From Thiotrichaceae bacterium (lineage in GTDB: Bacteria > Pseudomonadota > Gammaproteobacteria > Thiotrichales > Thiotrichaceae): a DNA stretch of 44,537 nucleotides. The position numbers and the translations under genes are program-made. The notes below the pieces were generated by a model that was given only the letters and a program-made list of their open reading frames with translations, was not told where the DNA came from and did no database searches. Each line of letters starts with the position of its first letter. Positions within the stretch are counted from its first letter, which is position 1. The stretch covers positions 1 to 44,537 of the forward strand of contig WFRR01000173.1 in NCBI GenBank assembly GCA_015486375.1, in the 5' to 3' direction. This document shows positions 11,209 through 19,740 of this stretch, piece after piece.

Positions 11209-11745
11209 TTATTCACCCTCAAATTCACACAATGAAAAGCATGGACAATTCAGTTTCGTTTGTAAATATTGACTGCCGCCTAAATCGGGTAGATCAACCA
11301 CAAAACAACTTTCTATAATATTACCTTCTAGCTTGCGAATGAGTTTAATCGCTGCCGCCGCCGTTCCTCCTGTGGCAATTAAATCGTCAATTAATAAAAT
11401 ACGATCATTTGCCTGAATACAGTCCTTATGGATTTCAATTTTATCTTCCCCATATTCTAATTGATAAGATTGGCTGACCGTTTCAGCGGGTAATTTACCT
11501 GCTTTGCGTACCGTAATAAATGCAGCTCCCAGCTCATATGCCACGGCTGATCCAAAAATAAACCCTCGTGCTTCAATGCCTGCAACAGCAGTAATATTTT
11601 GCTCCATATAGCGATGTACAATGGCATCAATCGTCATTCGTAATGCTTTGGGGTTTTCTAATAAAGTTGTAATATCACGAAATTGAATGCCTGCTTTAGG
11701 ATAATCAGGAATGGTGCGAATAGAGGATTTAATCAGTTCATACAT
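11209..11745 (-). CDS. apt: Adenine phosphoribosyltransferase
   Basis: Classic Apt N-terminus ([21 protein letters not shown]) and PRPP-binding motif [17 protein letters not shown]. 178 aa. Confidence 0.95.
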
Positions 11746-11802
11746 AATACTAAAAGGGTCAGTTATAAATAAGGGATAGTATCAGCTTGATAAAATCATC
11801 TG

Positions 11803-14800
11803 TTATTTTTTAGTACGGAGTTGTGTTACCCAATCCAATTTAGCTCGCGAAATTTTAGACAGTTTGTTTAATTCCTTACCTATATATTCAATATTATCCA
11901 CAATACGTTGAGTAACCTCAGCAGACTGTTGACCTGCTTGTTGTTTAGTTTGAAAATTTTGTTTGATTTGCTTCCAGCGTTTCTGTTGTTCTACGCTCAT
12001 ATTGCCGCGAAGTTCTGCTAATTTAAGTAAATTTTCTTCTGCACCTTGGGTGAGTAATTGCGCTTCACCTAGATAGTGATCATGGGTCATTTGCAACAGT
12101 TCTTGTTTATTCATCACTGCGGAGACTTTCTCAACCATTTTATTCATATTGCGATAGCTACCTTGTAACTTAAAGGCAGGCTCAGTACGATATTCATCCG
12201 CTTGTGCAGCGGAGGCAATATATTGTTGATTGACTTTTAATACTAATACTTGAATCTGTAATAGTTTCTTAAATACTTCTACAATTTCATTACGTTCTGC
12301 CCCACTATAGTCATAATTTAAAGCACTACTATTGACGTTTTTACCTTTTGCCATATCAATCAGTAAATAGGTATCTGCCATATCACGTACAGCTAGTGGT
12401 GCTAAAATAGGGTTAGAGGTTAAGCTATTTTCAATATAACTGAGTGAAAAGGCTTCTTCTGCTCCGCCGAGAATATCACCTAAATTATAAATATCTGCAC
12501 GATTAGCTAACATATCAGGGATTTTGAAAGCTTCGCCTGATTCGGTATAAGGATTACCCGCCATAACAATACAAAATTTCTTACCGCGCATATCATAGGT
12601 TTTAGCGCGTTCTTTCCAGACTCCTTCAATACGACGGGTTGCATCACTCAGGGAAATAAATTTCTGCAAAAATTCTGCATTGGTATGTTGTATATCATCT
12701 AAATACAACATAAGATTATTGCCCATTTCTAAGCCCATATTCAGCTTTTTCAATTCTTGCCGTGAAGCAGAATCAGGTGCTTGGCTAGGGTCAAGTGACA
12801 CGACACTATGCCCGAGTGAAGGACAATTAATCTTCATAAAGATCAAGCCTAAACGATTAGCAACATACTCCATTAAAGTGGTTTTACCATAACCTGGAGG
12901 TGAAATCATCATTAATAAACCCATTAAATCCGAACGCTTATTCTCACCTACCGTTCCCATTTGTTTAGCTAAATTATCGCCAATCATGGGCAGGTATTGT
13001 TCATTAATAAGTCGATTACGCACAAAGGAAGATAAGGGTCGAGCTTTGAATTCTTCTAAACGTAAAGCTTCACGTTGTTCATTGATAATACGACTACGCA
13101 ATTGATGGTAGCGATAAAATTGGGGAATAACAATTTCTTGATGATGTTGATATTGTAGTAAAAAACGATCTAAACCTAAATGTAAGCATTGCTGATCAAT
13201 TTTGGGATGTTCTCCCATTAAATCGACAACCTTAAATTCTAATGCTGTCTTATTTTCTCGTAAGGTAATCTGTGGTGCAATTAATAAAGCAATCGTTTCA
13301 GGAATATAATGTAGATAATTGTTTGGATCAGTAGCACTTAACATTGCCTGTAACCATGCGGAAATTAACTGCCATTGTTGGGTATAATCATCACCTAATT
13401 TTTCTAAGGCAATTTTAAAATCTTGCCAAATACGCGAAATATCTAACTTACGACGTAATTGATCTAATAGTTGTGTGGCATATAGACTACTTACAAAGGT
13501 TTTATCCGCACGGGCAAGTTCTTGACTTAAATAATCTGCGGCATAATTTACAGTCAGTGAACGAGCTTCAATAATAGAGTGGGTGTCTAAAAAGCAATTT
13601 AATTCGCCTTGTATTTCTTGTTTTAATAAGTCATAAGCATCACTACAAGTAAAAACTGTTTGCATTTGAGCCGCTGATTTTGCTCGTTTTCGCCATGTAC
13701 GTTGTAGATTTTGATTTTTAGTCACAGCCCAGAATACACGGGCTAAACCGCGTTGCAAGGGATCAAAACGTAATAATTCTGCGGCACTGCGAATGGGTAA
13801 AATTTGAGTAATAATTTTAGCCGCATCATAATCATGAATCCCTTTTTCATAACCCTCTTTATAACGTGGAGCAGTAAAGGCTGTAATGGTTTTTAATAAT
13901 TGTTGAGGTTGACTAACTTGTTGCTGTAATTGTTCAAGATTAAAAATGACTGCATTATCGCTATCATTTTGGCTATTTTGACCCTCATGCTTATTTCTAT
14001 TACTTTCTGCGGCAGCTAGTATTTGTCCTGCTAAATATTCAGCCCGATAAAACTGAGGTGTTTCTGAAACTAATGCTTGTTGCCAATAATCTTGACTGTC
14101 ATTTAGTTCAGGAATATCGATAGCTTCAAAGAAATCCGTCCCCGTAAGATGAATATGTAAACGATTATTACGGGGCAATAAAGTAATGTCTAACGCTTGG
14201 GTATTGACACTAAAACGGTGCTTTTTACCCAGCCTAATAATATTACCACCTGATTCATAAATCTCAGATTTGTCCCGTAAACTCCGAAAAGCTTGATCTT
14301 GATTAGATTTTAAGCGGGATTCAATATCATCTGCTTTAACACTGTCGTCCAAGTCTCGTAGTGTTGCAGCAATACTACGTGCTTTGATAATCAGTGGATC
14401 AGAAACGTAGAAAGTATTTAAACTATCAACATCATTAAACTTTTCCCCTCGGCGTTGAATTGAACTTAAAATACGCTTGGCGGCATCCAGTAAATTTTGG
14501 GCTTTACGTTGACGTTCGTCTACTAAGACTTGTTTGTGTGCTTCAAAGGTTTCATAAACTTCATCGCGTTTAGTCATAATATCGCTAAGAAATTCATCAA
14601 ATTCACTAAACTGACTTTCAATTTCTTCAAGCTGAATCAGGAGACGACTGAGTTGTTCATCAGTTTTATCAGGGTCGGTCGATAAGCTCAGTGCATTGGC
14701 AATGCCTTGTCCAAATAGTTTAAATTGTGCTGAAAATTGTGCAATAGACTCAGCCGAACCCAAGTCTTTTTGTTTATGTTTAGCCCGAGCTTTACTTTGA

Positions 14801-16896
14801 TTCAGCCTAGAATATAGCTCAGAAATAGCCTCGATAATCACCGTGCGAACGGTGGCATCATCCACGCTTAAGGTCGTCATTAATTCAGATAATAAATCCA
14901 AATCCGCTGACATTTTATTTAAACCCTGCAATGGTTCATCTAATTGTGTGCGGGTCTTTACGGCTTCTAATTGTTGTTCTAATAGAATTAAATTGTCATT
15001 ATAAGGTGTTAAGGCTTGCTCACTGGAAAGAAAGGCAACCGTATCATCACCAAGTCGCTCTTGGGCTTGAAGCAGTTGTTGATCCAATTTTTCAATCTGC
15101 ACTTGATCAATATAACGATAAGCTTTAATGGTAATTAAATGCCCACGTTGTTGCCGAATTTGAGTGAGTGCATCAACAAATTCTTCTACTTTTTGCCAAC
15201 CATCAGGTAATAAACGGGCAATTAATTCTTTTTGCTGTGCTTGTGCATATTGGATCGCATCAATGGCTTTTTTACGGATGGATTCGACTTTTTCAAACTC
15301 ATCCAAAACTAATTCAGATGTTTGAGCAATTTCATGCAAACTTTGATTAATTGTGCCGAGTCGCGCTTTATTCAGCCAGTAATAGCTATCAAATAAACGC
15401 CGACTATTATTGATTAACTGCGTGTACCTCGGTACAGAAATGGTTTTATTATCGATTTCTCGGGCAATACTGTATAAATCAGAAATGCCACGTACTAACT
15501 CATTATTACCAATTTTGGCGTAAAAGCTATGTCCAACACTTTGCTGACTGGCATATTCCTCTGAGGTAAATGGTGTTTGCCAGATTTGCATAGGATGAGT
15601 ACGGGTTGCCGTTTCACCTTCTGCATTGAAAATAACCATAGTGCCATTATCTAAAATGGCATAGCCATGTCCAAATAGTGGATTTTGTAAACTTTTATTA
15701 ATTAAATTATAAGAATATAGGGCTGATTCACCTGCTTCAGGGCGATAAAAAATATAAACAATATCTTCCCCGTTGGGAGAAATAATGGCACGCTTAAACT
15801 GTAATTCATGCGTATCATCATTGAATTGTTTAAATGCTCCATCTTGTAAATACATTCCTCCTGGAAAAATAATTCCATGATTTTCAGGTAATTGTATACA
15901 GGATTCACCAATTGCATCAATGCGTTGCACATCACGGGTAATACGATTAAAAACTAAATAACGCCACTGTTCCTCATGATAAGGTAAAATCTTTAATAAA
16001 ATTAATTGCCCTATTTCTGCATAGTAGATTTTACCATCGTCTAAAGATTGGTTTTTATCCTCGACTTCTTCTGCATAAATCCCCAAGCCCGACAGAGTAT
16101 TATTTTCAACCTTAACGGTTAAATCACCCCCCACTGTTTCTACAAAGATATGATCAAGGATATTGACATGCGGATGACGACCATTAACCTGATGTTCGCG
16201 TCCTGTTTCTACCCAATCAAAATCATAACGTTGCGGTAAAGCAATTTCACGCTCACCTCGATTATCAATATAGTTAATCGTATGTAAGCCTTCTGAACTG
16301 GGGGGTTCAATTTGCCAACGAAATACGCGAATATCGGTGAGTTTATTACCAATTTGGAAGGATGCTAATAAACGATTGTTTTTCACAATCAATTGAATCA
16401 GCTTTGCGCCTTTGTAATAGGTATACAGTTCTTTAAAATCTTGTTGAAAATGGGGTTCACTTAGAAAAGTATCCGTGAAATTCACCGCTTCCATTTCATA
16501 ACTAGCAGCTTTAGCACTGGATTTACCCGTACTATCGATATTTTCAGCACTGCTAGAATTGCTTTGCTTAACTAAGCGATACAGTGAAAATACATCTTCA
16601 ATATGAGTTTCTTTTTTTAAACCCATAAACACATTATAGGCAAATAATAAATAATCCCCCACAGGTACAATATCACGGGCAATACAATTATTTTTAGTGC
16701 GAACCCGCAAACGTCCAATCACTGCCATATCAGAATTACCAAACTCTGCTAAGCGTGCCTGATTTAATTCGTTGACAGCGTCGGTAAGTTGCTGACCTTG
16801 CATTTCTAAACGCTGACGAATAATGCCATAAGCACCGCCTTCTGCAACGGCTTGGTCTGTCAGGCTTTGCTCAGATGTAGATAGGGAATCAGACAT
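11803..16896 (-). CDS. Giant (1697 aa) protein of unknown function with a single C-terminal AAA_5/MoxR-type ATPase module
   Basis: Uninterrupted 5.1-kb ORF. Walker A ISPPGYGKTTL (~aa 1330; DNA ~12876-12893). Walker B LMLYLDDIQ. Sensor-1-like CIVMAGNPYTE. 'IPDMLANRADIY' resembles the AAA_5 C-terminal block. The N-terminal ~1300 aa has no P-loop or other recognisable motif: a β-rich region, then long helical/coiled-coil stretches. It is co-directional with, and 62 bp downstream of, the flotillin gene. Confidence 0.85.
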   Translation of the reverse strand: MSDSLSTSEQSLTDQAVAEGGAYGIIRQRLEMQGQQLTDAVNELNQARLAEFGNSDMAVIGRLRVRTKNNCIARDIVPVGDYLLFAYNVFMGLKKETHIEDVFSLYRLVKQSNSSSAENIDSTGKSSAKAASYEMEAVNFTDTFLSEPHFQQDFKELYTYYKGAKLIQLIVKNNRLLASFQIGNKLTDIRVFRWQIEPPSSEGLHTINYIDNRGEREIALPQRYDFDWVETGREHQVNGRHPHVNILDHIFVETVGGDLTVKVENNTLSGLGIYAEEVEDKNQSLDDGKIYYAEIGQLILLKILPYHEEQWRYLVFNRITRDVQRIDAIGESCIQLPENHGIIFPGGMYLQDGAFKQFNDDTHELQFKRAIISPNGEDIVYIFYRPEAGESALYSYNLINKSLQNPLFGHGYAILDNGTMVIFNAEGETATRTHPMQIWQTPFTSEEYASQQSVGHSFYAKIGNNELVRGISDLYSIAREIDNKTISVPRYTQLINNSRRLFDSYYWLNKARLGTINQSLHEIAQTSELVLDEFEKVESIRKKAIDAIQYAQAQQKELIARLLPDGWQKVEEFVDALTQIRQQRGHLITIKAYRYIDQVQIEKLDQQLLQAQERLGDDTVAFLSSEQALTPYNDNLILLEQQLEAVKTRTQLDEPLQGLNKMSADLDLLSELMTTLSVDDATVRTVIIEAISELYSRLNQSKARAKHKQKDLGSAESIAQFSAQFKLFGQGIANALSLSTDPDKTDEQLSRLLIQLEEIESQFSEFDEFLSDIMTKRDEVYETFEAHKQVLVDERQRKAQNLLDAAKRILSSIQRRGEKFNDVDSLNTFYVSDPLIIKARSIAATLRDLDDSVKADDIESRLKSNQDQAFRSLRDKSEIYESGGNIIRLGKKHRFSVNTQALDITLLPRNNRLHIHLTGTDFFEAIDIPELNDSQDYWQQALVSETPQFYRAEYLAGQILAAAESNRNKHEGQNSQNDSDNAVIFNLEQLQQQVSQPQQLLKTITAFTAPRYKEGYEKGIHDYDAAKIITQILPIRSAAELLRFDPLQRGLARVFWAVTKNQNLQRTWRKRAKSAAQMQTVFTCSDAYDLLKQEIQGELNCFLDTHSIIEARSLTVNYAADYLSQELARADKTFVSSLYATQLLDQLRRKLDISRIWQDFKIALEKLGDDYTQQWQLISAWLQAMLSATDPNNYLHYIPETIALLIAPQITLRENKTALEFKVVDLMGEHPKIDQQCLHLGLDRFLLQYQHHQEIVIPQFYRYHQLRSRIINEQREALRLEEFKARPLSSFVRNRLINEQYLPMIGDNLAKQMGTVGENKRSDLMGLLMMISPPGYGKTTLMEYVANRLGLIFMKINCPSLGHSVVSLDPSQAPDSASRQELKKLNMGLEMGNNLMLYLDDIQHTNAEFLQKFISLSDATRRIEGVWKERAKTYDMRGKKFCIVMAGNPYTESGEAFKIPDMLANRADIYNLGDILGGAEEAFSLSYIENSLTSNPILAPLAVRDMADTYLLIDMAKGKNVNSSALNYDYSGAERNEIVEVFKKLLQIQVLVLKVNQQYIASAAQADEYRTEPAFKLQGSYRNMNKMVEKVSAVMNKQELLQMTHDHYLGEAQLLTQGAEENLLKLAELRGNMSVEQQKRWKQIKQNFQTKQQAGQQSAEVTQRIVDNIEYIGKELNKLSKISRAKLDWVTQLRTKK

Positions 16897-16958
16897 AATG
16901 ATTTTCTTTATTTAGGAAAGATAAGCTGAGGTAATACGCTTGGTATTCTATATAACAA

Positions 16959-18890
16959 TTATTTATCTAAAAATTTACCAATGAGTTTCTGTAAATCAGG
17001 GCTTTTGGATACTGCACCTTCAATAGATTTACCTAAAGAGAGTGAACGTGCAAAGGATTTAAAATAATCCCCTTCTCCACCAACAATATCAATATTGGCC
17101 TTAGATAGTGCTGTCGCAAGGACTTTAGCTTGATCAGCGGCAATCACTTTGCTGGCATCAATTTCTGCTAAGGTTTGTTCTAGGTTTTTCTCTAACTTCA
17201 TACGGAATTCTTCATGCTCACGAGCCGTATCACTCATCTGTGCCATTGCATTAAATTTCTCGATTAAACCATCTGCTTCAGCTTTAAACTGTTCACGGGT
17301 AACATTGGCTTCGGCTAAACCCATATTATTCGTCCCTTTAGCTTCTGCATCCATCTTTTCTTCCATCACTCGTGCTTCCATCAAGCCTTGTTTTTCCTCT
17401 GCAATCGCCTTCGCTTCAATACCTTGGGCTTCGGCTTCCATTTTATGTTGTAAAACATTGGCTTCGGCGAGACCTTCTTTTTCCATTGCAATCGCATTGG
17501 CTTGTTTAACATTTGCTTTAGCCAGCCCTGAAGCTGCCTCTTCAGCTTGAGTGCCTTCGGCTAATTGTTTTTTTGCATCCGTTGCTTTTGCAGCAACTTC
17601 TAATTCTGCTTGAGCAATGGTATTGAGTTCTTTAGCCCGATAAGTTGATTTAACTTCATCGGCTTCAGCTTGTTTAACTTGCTTAACTAAGCCTTCTTCT
17701 GCTTCTGCTTCCGCTGCAATAATTTGTGCGCGTTTAGCGCGTTCTGCTTCAGAAATAACGCGGACTTCTTTAATTTTCTCTTCTTGCTCAGCAACAGTTT
17801 TTTCAACGGCAATTCGCTCTCGAATTACATTAGCAATTTCTTTTTTCTCGTGTTCTAAGGCTTTTTCTTTTTCAATACTCTGAATTTCAACTTCACGCTC
17901 TCTGGCAACAATTTCTAAGTCGCGCGCTTTTTGTACCCGTTCCTCTTCAATCGCGACGGCACGAAGACGATTATTTTCAGCCACTTCAATTTCGCGGTGC
18001 ATATTTTCTTCACGAACTTGTAGCTGCTCTTCTGTTTCAATATAAGCTTGTTGTGAACGTAGACGCTCTTCCTCTTGGACTTTCTTTGTTTCCGCTTCTT
18101 CACGGGCTTGAATACTGGAAACCTCACGCGCTTGCTTTGCTTCTGCATCAGCCTGCTGACGCTCTAATGCCAACATGGATTCACGAGTTTCTACATTCTT
18201 TTTCTTAATTGCTAGCTCTTCATTCTTTTCAAATTCATTAGTTTTGATATTTTGAATGGCGGTTAATTCAGTGATTTTACGAATACCTTCCGAATCCATA
18301 ATATTATTGAAATCTAATGAAGATTTAGGTGTTTGTTCCAAATAATCAATCGCAACATCTTCAAGAATATAACCATTAAGATCATCACCAATGACTTCAA
18401 TAATCTTGTCACGAAAAGCAATACGGTTTTCAAATAAGTCTACAAAATTAAGTTGTTTACCAACCGTTTTCAGAGCTTCTGAGAATTTTGCATTAAATAA
18501 TTCATTTACCGCATCACGATCAGAAGCACGATCTGCACCAATAGACTTAGCCACTTTGAGCACATCTTCTTGAGTTTCATTAACACGTAAATAAAAGGCA
18601 ACTACAATGTCAGCCCGAATATTATCGCGACAAATCAAGCCATCTTTGCTTTTACGGGATAGCTCCATCGTAATTAAGGAAATTTTCATTAATTCTTTTT
18701 TATTAATGATTGGCCAGACAATCCCACCTGTAAATTTAACTTTTGGGGTTCGAGAAGTATCATTGATAATCAACGCCCAGCCTTGCTGAACTTTAACATA
18801 GAACATGGCAAAACCCATGATCGCTCCCACCAGTATCAAGGCAAAAATGCCAACAACGGTAAAGATTAGAATAGTGAGGGTGCTTTCCAT
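16959..18890 (-). CDS. Flotillin-family SPFH/band-7 protein (YqiK-like)
   Basis: N-terminal TM helix, then an SPFH domain, then a long Glu/Ala-rich coiled coil (EA repeats) typical of flotillins. 643 aa. AAGGAA RBS 7 nt upstream. 21 bp downstream of the NfeD-like gene. Confidence 0.85.
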   Translation of the reverse strand: MESTLTILIFTVVGIFALILVGAIMGFAMFYVKVQQGWALIINDTSRTPKVKFTGGIVWPIINKKELMKISLITMELSRKSKDGLICRDNIRADIVVAFYLRVNETQEDVLKVAKSIGADRASDRDAVNELFNAKFSEALKTVGKQLNFVDLFENRIAFRDKIIEVIGDDLNGYILEDVAIDYLEQTPKSSLDFNNIMDSEGIRKITELTAIQNIKTNEFEKNEELAIKKKNVETRESMLALERQQADAEAKQAREVSSIQAREEAETKKVQEEERLRSQQAYIETEEQLQVREENMHREIEVAENNRLRAVAIEEERVQKARDLEIVAREREVEIQSIEKEKALEHEKKEIANVIRERIAVEKTVAEQEEKIKEVRVISEAERAKRAQIIAAEAEAEEGLVKQVKQAEADEVKSTYRAKELNTIAQAELEVAAKATDAKKQLAEGTQAEEAASGLAKANVKQANAIAMEKEGLAEANVLQHKMEAEAQGIEAKAIAEEKQGLMEARVMEEKMDAEAKGTNNMGLAEANVTREQFKAEADGLIEKFNAMAQMSDTAREHEEFRMKLEKNLEQTLAEIDASKVIAADQAKVLATALSKANIDIVGGEGDYFKSFARSLSLGKSIEGAVSKSPDLQKLIGKFLDK

Positions 18891-18911
18891 AATGTGTTCC
18901 TTGTATTTTCT

Positions 18912-19532
18912 TTATTGTTTTGCAGTAACCAGATAGGTATGTTGACCAGCGTTATATTTCTTTAAAGTAACTGAATTGCCTCGTTGCAAGGTATTAACAT
19001 GTTCACAACGTATTTTCAAAATTAAGCCTGCCCCCCCATCATTAAATTTAGCTTCACCAAAATTCGCCGTGACTTTTGAACTCCGTACAATAGCTGTTTT
19101 TCCGATAATATCCTGAGAACTTTGAGCATTGTGTCCTTTAAATAATGGTTTTAAAGGCGTAATAATTATTGCGACCAGCGGTGCAGTTAGCAATGGCGTG
19201 AGAATAATAATCCATATGCCTAATACAACCCGTAACCACTCTGCATTAATTTGTGTACTAAAGTGATACACCATTAAAAAACACAGTAGCCATGATAATA
19301 AAATAATTAGCGATAGTGAAATAGTGACAGGTACACCCTCTAACTTAAATTTATTTAGAAAGCTTCCCAATAAGCTGAAGTCAGACTCTCCATCTGCATC
19401 GAGATCAACATCCAGTACATCCAGATCAAAAAAACCAATCACTGAGAATAGCCAGTAAATGGTCACAATGGCTAATAAACCTGTGTAAAGTGCGGTGGGG
19501 AAAGTGAACGAAATGTGTATAAAATTTTCCAT
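18912..19532 (-). CDS. NfeD/YqiJ-like membrane protein (flotillin partner)
   Basis: 206 aa. Hydrophobic N-terminal half with 3-4 TM segments. C-terminal soluble β-rich OB-like tail (…GKTAIVRS…GAGLILKIR…). Size and arrangement match E. coli yqiJ-yqiK. Confidence 0.7.
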   Translation of the reverse strand: MENFIHISFTFPTALYTGLLAIVTIYWLFSVIGFFDLDVLDVDLDADGESDFSLLGSFLNKFKLEGVPVTISLSLIILLSWLLCFLMVYHFSTQINAEWLRVVLGIWIIILTPLLTAPLVAIIITPLKPLFKGHNAQSSQDIIGKTAIVRSSKVTANFGEAKFNDGGAGLILKIRCEHVNTLQRGNSVTLKKYNAGQHTYLVTAKQ

Positions 19533-19740
19533 TGCGCTATCTCAGAAACCTATGTCGTCGATGATCATACAAGGGTATACCCTTTATTTTATTGTTTTTT
19601 ATATTTGCTGTAGAGTTTAGTCTAGTTCGAGTAAAAATCAGCAGCTTGTTCTATTGTTAGACAACTTGCCTATTCAAGTGTCGTGATAGGAGTTCTGATA
19701 TTATCAGATGTCTCTAAACTGACTCCATTTAAGACAACTC

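Follow-up and report, generated by a model that had tools for sequence, protein, structure and literature searches.

A giant AAA+ ATPase encoded beside a YqiJ/NfeD-like protein and a flotillin in a Thiotrichaceae bacterium: an abbreviated member of a published module

What does a soluble ATPase of 1,697 residues do next to a flotillin? The question is raised by a 44,537-nucleotide contig of a Thiotrichaceae bacterium (GenBank assembly GCA_015486375.1, contig WFRR01000173.1, positions 1 to 44,537; hereafter, the window), in which genes for a YqiJ/NfeD-like membrane protein, a YqiK-type flotillin, and a giant AAA+ ATPase follow one another on the minus strand. A preliminary description of this DNA had proposed a three-gene operon, and its same-strand open reading frames (ORFs), with their coordinates and gaps of 21, 62, and 57 bp, agree exactly with the list of minus-strand ORFs. 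It had also taken the coupling of a flotillin to a giant ATPase to be new to the literature, which is not so, as the neighborhood was reported in PMC11237479 and corresponds to bacC-bacD-bacE (PA3730, PA3729, and PA3728) of Pseudomonas aeruginosa. The window locus is thus a further, abbreviated member of a published module, the ATPase of which is mechanistically uncharacterized. The core of the locus is laid out as follows.

18912-19532, minus strand: gene for the YqiJ/NfeD-like membrane protein (206 aa; BacC orthologue), from the ORF and its translation
18891-18911, minus strand: junction between the NfeD-like and flotillin genes, 21 bp
16959-18890, minus strand: gene for the YqiK-type flotillin (643 aa; BacD/PaFlo3 orthologue), from the ORF and its translation
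16897-16958, minus strand: junction between the flotillin and giant genes, 62 bp
11803-16896, minus strand: gene for the giant soluble AAA+ ATPase (1697 aa; BacE/PA3728 orthologue), from the ORF and Pfam

Ravi et al. (2024, mSystems; preprint 2020; PMC11237479) describe a PspA-linked neighborhood in which CesT/Tir-PspA genes occur with a band-7/flotillin, a YqiJ/YuaF protein, and a “novel AAA+ ATPase”, and these last three types of protein are the ones encoded in the window. They also report abbreviated operons composed only of flotillin and YqiJ/YuaF genes, in some cases joined by the AAA+ ATPase gene, with a phospholipase D-like (PLD; HKD) hydrolase as an optional member, and propose ATP-dependent membrane remodelling or dynamics from a brief computational description. 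That description differs from the present analysis in being silent on a rhomboid partner, the near-obligate linkage between the ATPase and one flotillin subfamily, the middle domain of the ATPase, and its D-D Walker B motif.

The first account of the P. aeruginosa locus was of a four-gene biofilm-associated cluster (PA3729-PA3732), in which deletion of the PspA-like gene PA3731 lowers biofilm, swarming, rhamnolipids, and virulence, and osmotic shock causes PA3731 to accumulate (Macé et al., 2008; PMC2587700). Wallart et al. (2024; PMC10948618) described a six-gene bacABCDEF operon (PA3732-PA3727 / PA14_16140-16200) with reverse transcription PCR (RT-PCR) amplicons across every junction, including bacD-PA14_16190, and found that BacB-BacF co-accumulate 6- to 13-fold in a bacA mutant. 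The window genes correspond to bacC, bacD, and bacE, with gene order and strand preserved, whereas the window is without bacA (DUF2170/YjfI chaperone), bacB (PspA), and bacF (HKD/PLD-like), and the sigma-54-type site proposed upstream of bacA has no counterpart upstream of the window operon. The full arrangement was also found in the P. paraeruginosa locus L014, which encodes YjfI (206 aa), PspA (231), NfeD (213), flotillin (688), the giant protein (1,746), and PLD (235), with the giant protein 56% identical to that of the window. The assignment of BacE to the giant ATPase and of BacF to the PLD-like protein follows from this six-gene order rather than from the text of PMC10948618. PA3728 (“ATPase”) is also among the genes mutated in three independent cystic-fibrosis adaptation studies (PMC8190622), and the literature search found no biochemical, structural, or genetic study of this giant ATPase (PA3728/BacE).

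The association of the three genes is conserved far beyond Pseudomonas. A scan of one genome per GTDB species identified at least 583 relatives of the giant protein, and the best 80 loci were taken with 10-kb flanks; 73 of these were assessable, the remainder being cut off by a contig end. Searches with the window proteins (tblastn) placed the NfeD-like, flotillin, and giant genes in this order on one strand in all 73 assessable loci. The NfeD-like gene is directly upstream of the flotillin gene in 71 genome loci, with a median gap of 34 bp, and the median gap between flotillin and giant genes is 117 bp (more than 300 bp in 15 of the 71 loci). A metagenome scan seeded with seven members of the giant family, 27-44% identical to one another, returned 52 loci with at least 3 kb of upstream sequence, and the flotillin is directly upstream of the giant gene in 49 of them. 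The NfeD-like gene was found by tblastn in 42 of the metagenomic loci, and four more have an ORF of 227-238 aa with three transmembrane (TM) segments, too divergent for tblastn. When the flotillin was instead taken as the starting point, a DUF3686 protein lay downstream in all four cases looked up (Providencia, Corticibacter, Nitrincola, and Luteimonas). Chance adjacency of the three genes is rejected by the counts of 73/73 and 49/52. The preliminary description had called for such a synteny search and had held that its proposal would fail if the giant protein belonged to a characterized family routinely found without flotillin; instead, the giant gene nearly always adjoins a flotillin gene, and its family is functionally uncharacterized.

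The module occurs in at least five phyla, including the clinically relevant genera Pseudomonas, Stenotrophomonas, Providencia, and Proteus. Annotated gene orders are Tir chaperone, PspA, DUF1449, 722-aa protein, and ATPase in Hymenobacter (Bacteroidota); small ORF, flotillin, and ATPase in Streptomyces (Actinomycetota); and 198-aa protein, 652-aa protein, and ATPase in Deinococcus (Deinococcota). The genome loci also include Longimicrobium, a genus of Gemmatimonadota, and a zetaproteobacterium. In one Lysobacter locus (L042:6471-9320), the maximal flotillin ORF runs over the NfeD-like gene and gives an apparent swap of order, which almost certainly arises because ORFs were called from their first start codon in high-GC DNA and does not reflect a real rearrangement.

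The giant protein has more than 4,400 homologues in a word-indexed search, and the top 120 share 56-73% identity with it across 96-99% of its length. An exhaustive HMMER search with residues 1-900 against 1.84 billion representatives clustered at 50% identity matched 1,094 representatives at E <= 1e-3 and 349 at E <= 1e-30, most of them full-length (1,590-2,036 aa), with identities down to 29%. The family is compact and its architecture is fixed.

The flotillin label given in the preliminary description is right, although curated profiles alone would not have provided it. No Pfam profile matches the 643-aa protein even at E <= 10, the protein reaches no NCBIfam threshold, and among 34 orthologues scanned singly, Band_7 matched four (best E 1.2e-7) and Flot matched two. 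Because these profiles fail on the window protein, its membership rests on homology to Escherichia coli YqiK, which is found by BLASTP (E 1e-35, 28% identity across 471 residues) and by hhalign with the family profile of the 34 orthologues (probability 99.9%, E 1e-33). The BLASTP alignment begins in the N-terminal membrane helix and spans the SPFH core (residues 8-200), and so does not reflect mere coiled-coil composition. The protein comprises an N-terminal TM helix, an SPFH domain at approximately residues 35-200, a long E/A/K-rich coiled coil, and a C-terminal flotillin region. Its closest 120 homologues are all at least 59% identical to it, and those with names are called “flotillin family protein” or “YqiK”. 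Judged from these comparisons, the window flotillin belongs to a divergent subfamily that curated profiles mostly miss. It is only 28% identical to YqiK, and members of this separate subfamily are at least 55-60% identical to one another. Inside the flotillin gene, on the opposite strand (17149-17550, plus strand), is a 133-aa ORF that starts with TTG and is most likely a chance ORF opposite the E/A/K-rich coding region. Comparable antisense ORFs recur in high-GC loci, and their joint clustering is spurious.

The name YqiJ/NfeD-like for the 206-aa protein was also well chosen. Its translation contains three hydrophobic segments, an acidic D-rich loop, and a C-terminal beta-rich domain, and its family profile aligns with E. 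coli YqiJ (hhalign probability 93%, E 3e-7) over the membrane segments and through the C-terminal beta-rich part (window residues 132-199). Its sole Pfam match is a weak one to YqiJ_N (E 0.03), it reaches no Pfam or NCBIfam threshold, and YqiJ_N matches 9 of 34 orthologues. The Pfam NfeD profile had no match in the protein or in its orthologues scanned. On this evidence, the protein is YqiJ-like and represents a divergent subfamily largely missed by curated profiles. Searches of the PDB by sequence, with the single proteins and with the flotillin and NfeD-like family profiles, found no solved relative. The first two genes of the window are thus homologous to E. coli yqiJK and have the same order, whereas E. 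coli has no third gene and carries sibD/ibsD after yqiK; the conserved AAA+ region of an enterobacterial orthologue of the giant protein had no match in 5,426 complete E. coli genomes.

The giant protein was called an AAA_5 protein in the preliminary description. An AAA_5 match does exist (E 9e-6, residues 1328-1451), within a weaker C-terminal AAA/AAA_5/AAA_22 match (residues 1326-1451), but the dominant Pfam matches are instead DUF3686 (residues 37-506, E 3e-190) and DUF7902 (residues 627-710, E 4e-25). Pfam scans found no protease domain and no further domain. The protein is predicted to be soluble because it has no TM-grade hydrophobic segment (best 19-residue Kyte-Doolittle mean 1.17). 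Two AlphaFold2 predictions from 30-sequence alignments, one of residues 1-900 and one of residues 851-1697, had mean predicted local distance difference test (pLDDT) scores of 76.6 and 77.0. A long N-terminal helix is predicted at residues 6-52, followed by four regions on the minus strand, the last of which is followed by a C-terminal helix.

15574-16725, minus strand: residues 58-441, beta-rich DUF3686 core of approximately 29 strands (AlphaFold2, pLDDT 55-86)
14269-15525, minus strand: residues 458-876, array of long helices resembling spectrin repeats, including DUF7902 (AlphaFold2, pLDDT ~80-90)
13027-14199, minus strand: residues 900-1290, alpha/beta and helical domain (AlphaFold2, pLDDT mostly >90)
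11977-12939, minus strand: residues 1320-1640, AAA+ module (AlphaFold2 and motifs)

The beta-propeller call made for the DUF3686 core in PMC11237479 was not reproduced by the fold search here. Residues 900-1290 had no Pfam match at E <= 10 and no notable fold match in the PDB, the only structure collection compared, and a PDB sequence search found no solved structure related to the giant protein by sequence. In the AAA+ module, Walker A is SPPGYGKTT (residues 1332-1340), Walker B is MLYLDDIQH, with D1400-D1401 (12694-12699, minus strand) in place of the canonical D-E, and sensor-1 is N1448. Two arginines, R1466 in LANRADIY and R1582 in GSYRNMNK, complete a set of motifs that is invariant among close orthologues and among members only 27-44% identical to one another, and the D-D Walker B in particular is invariant in 18 close orthologues and 7 such divergent members. 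Walker A and B motifs, a sensor-1 residue, and arginines likewise mark the AAA+ core of the MoxR-class proteins NorQ, CbbQ, and RavA. However, those have approximately 250-500 residues and a VWA-domain partner, whereas the giant protein has 1,697 residues, and no VWA-family gene was found in any called or annotated neighborhood examined or among conserved neighbor clusters.

Homologues of the giant protein widely carry the names “DNA repair ATPase” or “DNA repair protein” in NCBI. These names appear to derive only from the one-line Pfam description of DUF3686, “ATPase involved in DNA repair”, and the literature search found no paper mentioning DUF3686 or PF12458. If they were taken literally, the giant protein would be a DNA-repair ATPase whose adjacency to flotillin is incidental, and the location of radA ~4 kb from the module in the window could be cited in addition to the names. 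However, radA is not conserved beside the module (it occurs once among the 80 genome loci, ~10 kb downstream in L008), the protein has no DNA-binding, nuclease, or SMC/ABC-type domain, its single C-terminal AAA+ module is not Rad50/SbcC-like, and it is linked to membrane proteins in essentially every genome. Sequence, predicted structure, and genomic context alike lend the names no support, and we consider a role in DNA repair highly improbable.

Clustering of all ORFs in the 80 genome loci identified several optional partners, all of which point to the membrane. Genes for DUF2170/YjfI-like and PspA_IM30 proteins (labels confirmed by Pfam) are immediately upstream on the same strand in approximately 47 of the 80 loci. 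Downstream of the giant gene, a single-HKD phospholipase-D-like gene occurs in approximately 22 loci and a rhomboid-family gene (label confirmed by Pfam) in approximately 18, with one or both in approximately 28; the rhomboid partner is the one not met in the passages of PMC11237479 on the neighborhood. In Providencia (L082:16221-16796), the rhomboid start overlaps the stop codon of the giant gene. The three-gene core stands alone in approximately 19 of the 80 loci, as it does in the window, where tblastn found no homologue of PspA, YjfI, PLD, or rhomboid anywhere in the 44.5 kb. Since no YjfI-like or PspA-like gene is present, the window locus belongs to the abbreviated operon class.

The functional coupling of an SPFH scaffold to an AAA+ machine at the membrane has a likeness in HflK/C-FtsH. 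In mitochondria, prohibitin-m-AAA and SLP2-PARL-YME1L are likewise combinations of an SPFH scaffold and an AAA+ machine, with a rhomboid protease in the case of SLP2. HflK/C are oriented toward the periplasm, and YqiK-type flotillins are believed to be oriented toward the cytoplasm. Whereas FtsH and YME1L are AAA proteases anchored in the membrane and ~650-750 residues long, the giant protein is soluble, has 1,697 residues with unrelated N-terminal domains, and has no protease domain. The homology shown between the module and HflK/C-FtsH or the mitochondrial complexes extends no further than the AAA+ fold.

By analogy with HflK/C-FtsH or the SLP/rhomboid/i-AAA complex, the module may serve quality control of membrane proteins, with a flotillin/NfeD cage that would corral membrane proteins that are damaged or unassembled and a giant ATPase that would extract or unfold them for proteases such as the downstream rhomboid. 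The rhomboid gene that follows the giant gene in some loci, including the overlapping pair in Providencia, is in keeping with such a role, as are fold matches of the AAA+ module that include the unfoldases ClpA, ClpB, and Skd3. SPFH-AAA+ coupling is established for HflK/C-FtsH (PMC13220708; also cited in PMC13086221), and PMC11222466 reports that FloA-NfeD of Staphylococcus aureus stabilizes unfolded proteins. However, a rhomboid gene is absent from the window and from most loci, the giant protein itself is without a protease domain, and pore loops that would thread a substrate were not identified in it. We regard quality control as a rather unlikely explanation on the whole, although it overlaps partly with the one preferred below, from which it differs in the handling of clients rather than remodelling of the scaffold.

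The three window genes are probably co-transcribed, as the preliminary description suggested. A consensus scan of the minus strand found no terminator-like or promoter-like site at either junction, the gaps are short, the gene order is conserved, and RT-PCR in P. aeruginosa PA14 spans both bacC-bacD and bacD-bacE. Such scans for terminators and promoters are weak, consensus-based indications. Upstream of the NfeD-like gene, the divergent mnmH gene shares with it an intergenic region that contains a candidate promoter. No sigma-54-type site was found in 19533-19740, and the count of that pattern across the window is at chance level. Downstream, the spacer before apt has no terminator-like hairpin, so read-through of the operon into apt is possible.

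19586-19614, minus strand: candidate sigma-70-type promoter TCTACA-17-TAAAAT (consensus match only), in the 208-bp divergent intergenic region common to mnmH and the NfeD-like gene
11746-11802, minus strand: spacer between the giant gene and apt, 57 bp
11209-11745, minus strand: apt (NCBIfam apt equivalog, E 1.6e-80)

Neither apt nor mnmH adjoins the module in any of the 80 genome loci, and apt was rejected as part of the unit because it is never linked to the module in other genomes. The remaining genes of the window are core housekeeping genes, encoding a DegP-like protease, PBP2, RodA, MltB, a hydrolase, DeaD, and LolCDE-like transporters, in addition to apt, mnmH, and radA. The three core genes have a GC content of 0.36-0.40, the same base composition as the remaining window. 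The nearest relatives are sequences from Thiotrichaceae, Cocleimonas, and Thiolinea.

This setting bears on a role in defense, which the preliminary description had listed among its candidates. In such a role, the flotillin/NfeD assembly would sense the perturbation of the membrane by a phage, and the giant NTPase, together with the HKD protein where present, would respond by anti-phage defense or abortive infection. PA3728-PA3732 are up-regulated in all phage-infected P. aeruginosa samples (PMC12041424), the patchy distribution of the module within Pseudomonas has been read as horizontal transfer (Garcia-Maldonado et al., 2026; PMC13086221), part of the loci, as counted above, have an HKD-motif gene after the giant gene, and a toxin-antitoxin-like pair is inserted in L048. 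However, induction by phage is expected of a Psp-type envelope-stress response anyway, and the window neighborhood consists of housekeeping genes. The giant family was found in none of 50,697 phage records and in 13 of 72,556 plasmid records, mostly megaplasmids, chromids, or chromosome-sized records. In PADLOC-DB v2, the sole match was mad8 (E 0.008), at chance level and in the generic AAA region, and the flotillin and NfeD-like proteins had none. Conservation is also unusually high for a defense system, with 57-60% identity over 1,700 residues across orders. A defense role is therefore improbable and is a part of the preliminary proposal that did not hold up, whereas the stress or membrane-remodelling role that it also named fits the literature.

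With moderate confidence, we favor the explanation that the three genes encode the core of a flotillin-associated, Psp-linked envelope-stress system, with a cytoplasmic AAA+ motor that would remodel the flotillin/NfeD assembly and, where present, PspA. The three-TM YqiJ/NfeD-like protein and the flotillin would together form an SPFH cage or microdomain anchored in the inner membrane on its cytoplasmic side, and the giant protein would dock on this assembly via its N-terminal beta-rich domain, which is specific to the family, and spectrin-like helical rods. It would then oligomerize through its C-terminal AAA+ module and use ATP to assemble, disassemble, or remodel the flotillin scaffold. The giant protein may also act on PspA polymers where these are encoded, or on client proteins held by the scaffold, and envelope stress would switch the system on. 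The domain identities, the invariant ATPase motifs, the absence of TM segments, and the near-obligate linkage of the genes across phyla come from the present analysis. Co-transcription, co-regulation by BacA, and induction both upon phage infection and in biofilm were shown by others in P. aeruginosa. In this scheme, we infer the physical interaction, the oligomeric state, the substrate, and the direction of remodelling.

Several observations weigh against this explanation. The window itself has no PspA, and in three metagenomic loci (L115, L135, and L142) no flotillin gene adjoins the giant gene. The flotillin and giant genes of several genomes are separated by 1-3.4 kb of unrelated cargo or by a gene on the opposite strand, as in the spacers below. 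Linkage persists there, but the giant gene must have its own promoter in at least some lineages because such inserts split it from the flotillin gene.

L043:7893-10001: two tandem, near-identical ORFs of ~306-311 aa, Rpn/YhgA-like
L048:6591-10001: NYN-like protein and a nucleotidyltransferase/HEPN-like pair
L084:11345-12814: opposite-strand protoglobin-GGDEF gene

Deletion of paFlo3 (PA14_16180) in P. aeruginosa resulted in only ~20% less biofilm and no other phenotype (PMC13086221), and the literature search found no interaction, localization, or ATPase data for any member of the giant family. With D-D in place of D-E in Walker B, ATP may be hydrolyzed slowly, or the role of the module may be mainly one of regulation or nucleotide sensing. 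Furthermore, the Foldseek matches, among which ClpA, Skd3, and RuvB rank equally, do not place the AAA+ module in one clade and thus offer no close relative from which a specific mode of action could be taken over. As a separate observation, L135, in which the giant protein is 57% identical to that of the window, has two unrelated plus-strand ORFs of 226 and 368 aa upstream instead.

The envelope-stress explanation has a further parallel in Vps4/ESCRT-III and PspF/PspA, since here too an AAA+ ATPase is linked genetically to a polymer of the ESCRT-III superfamily (PspA), in ~60% of the loci, and a polymer-remodelling role for the giant protein is plausible by this analogy. A bolder version, which we put forward tentatively and consider possible rather than probable, is that the BacE-type giant protein is a motor dedicated to the ATP-driven remodelling of flotillin cages and, in genomes that encode them, of YjfJ-type PspA (ESCRT-III-like) polymers. 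If true, the giant protein would be a functional counterpart of Vps4, which reviews say that bacteria lack (according to a 2025 review, bacteria appear to have no Vps4-like ATPase; PMC7619361). This counterpart would be built on an unrelated architecture, consisting of the DUF3686 beta-rich domain, spectrin-like rods, a middle domain of new fold, and an AAA+ module with a D-D Walker B, and the three-gene form in the window would be a minimal version of the remodelling machine.

A dedicated flotillin subfamily and a very large, highly conserved ATPase are brought together in this module, which bears on the assembly, turnover, and energy coupling of bacterial flotillin scaffolds and on the regulation of PspA polymer dynamics. 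The corresponding operon of P. aeruginosa has effects on biofilm and virulence, and both phage infection and osmotic stress induce it. The three-gene form, as found in this Thiotrichaceae bacterium, is the simplest genetic background for asking what the ATPase does to the flotillin.

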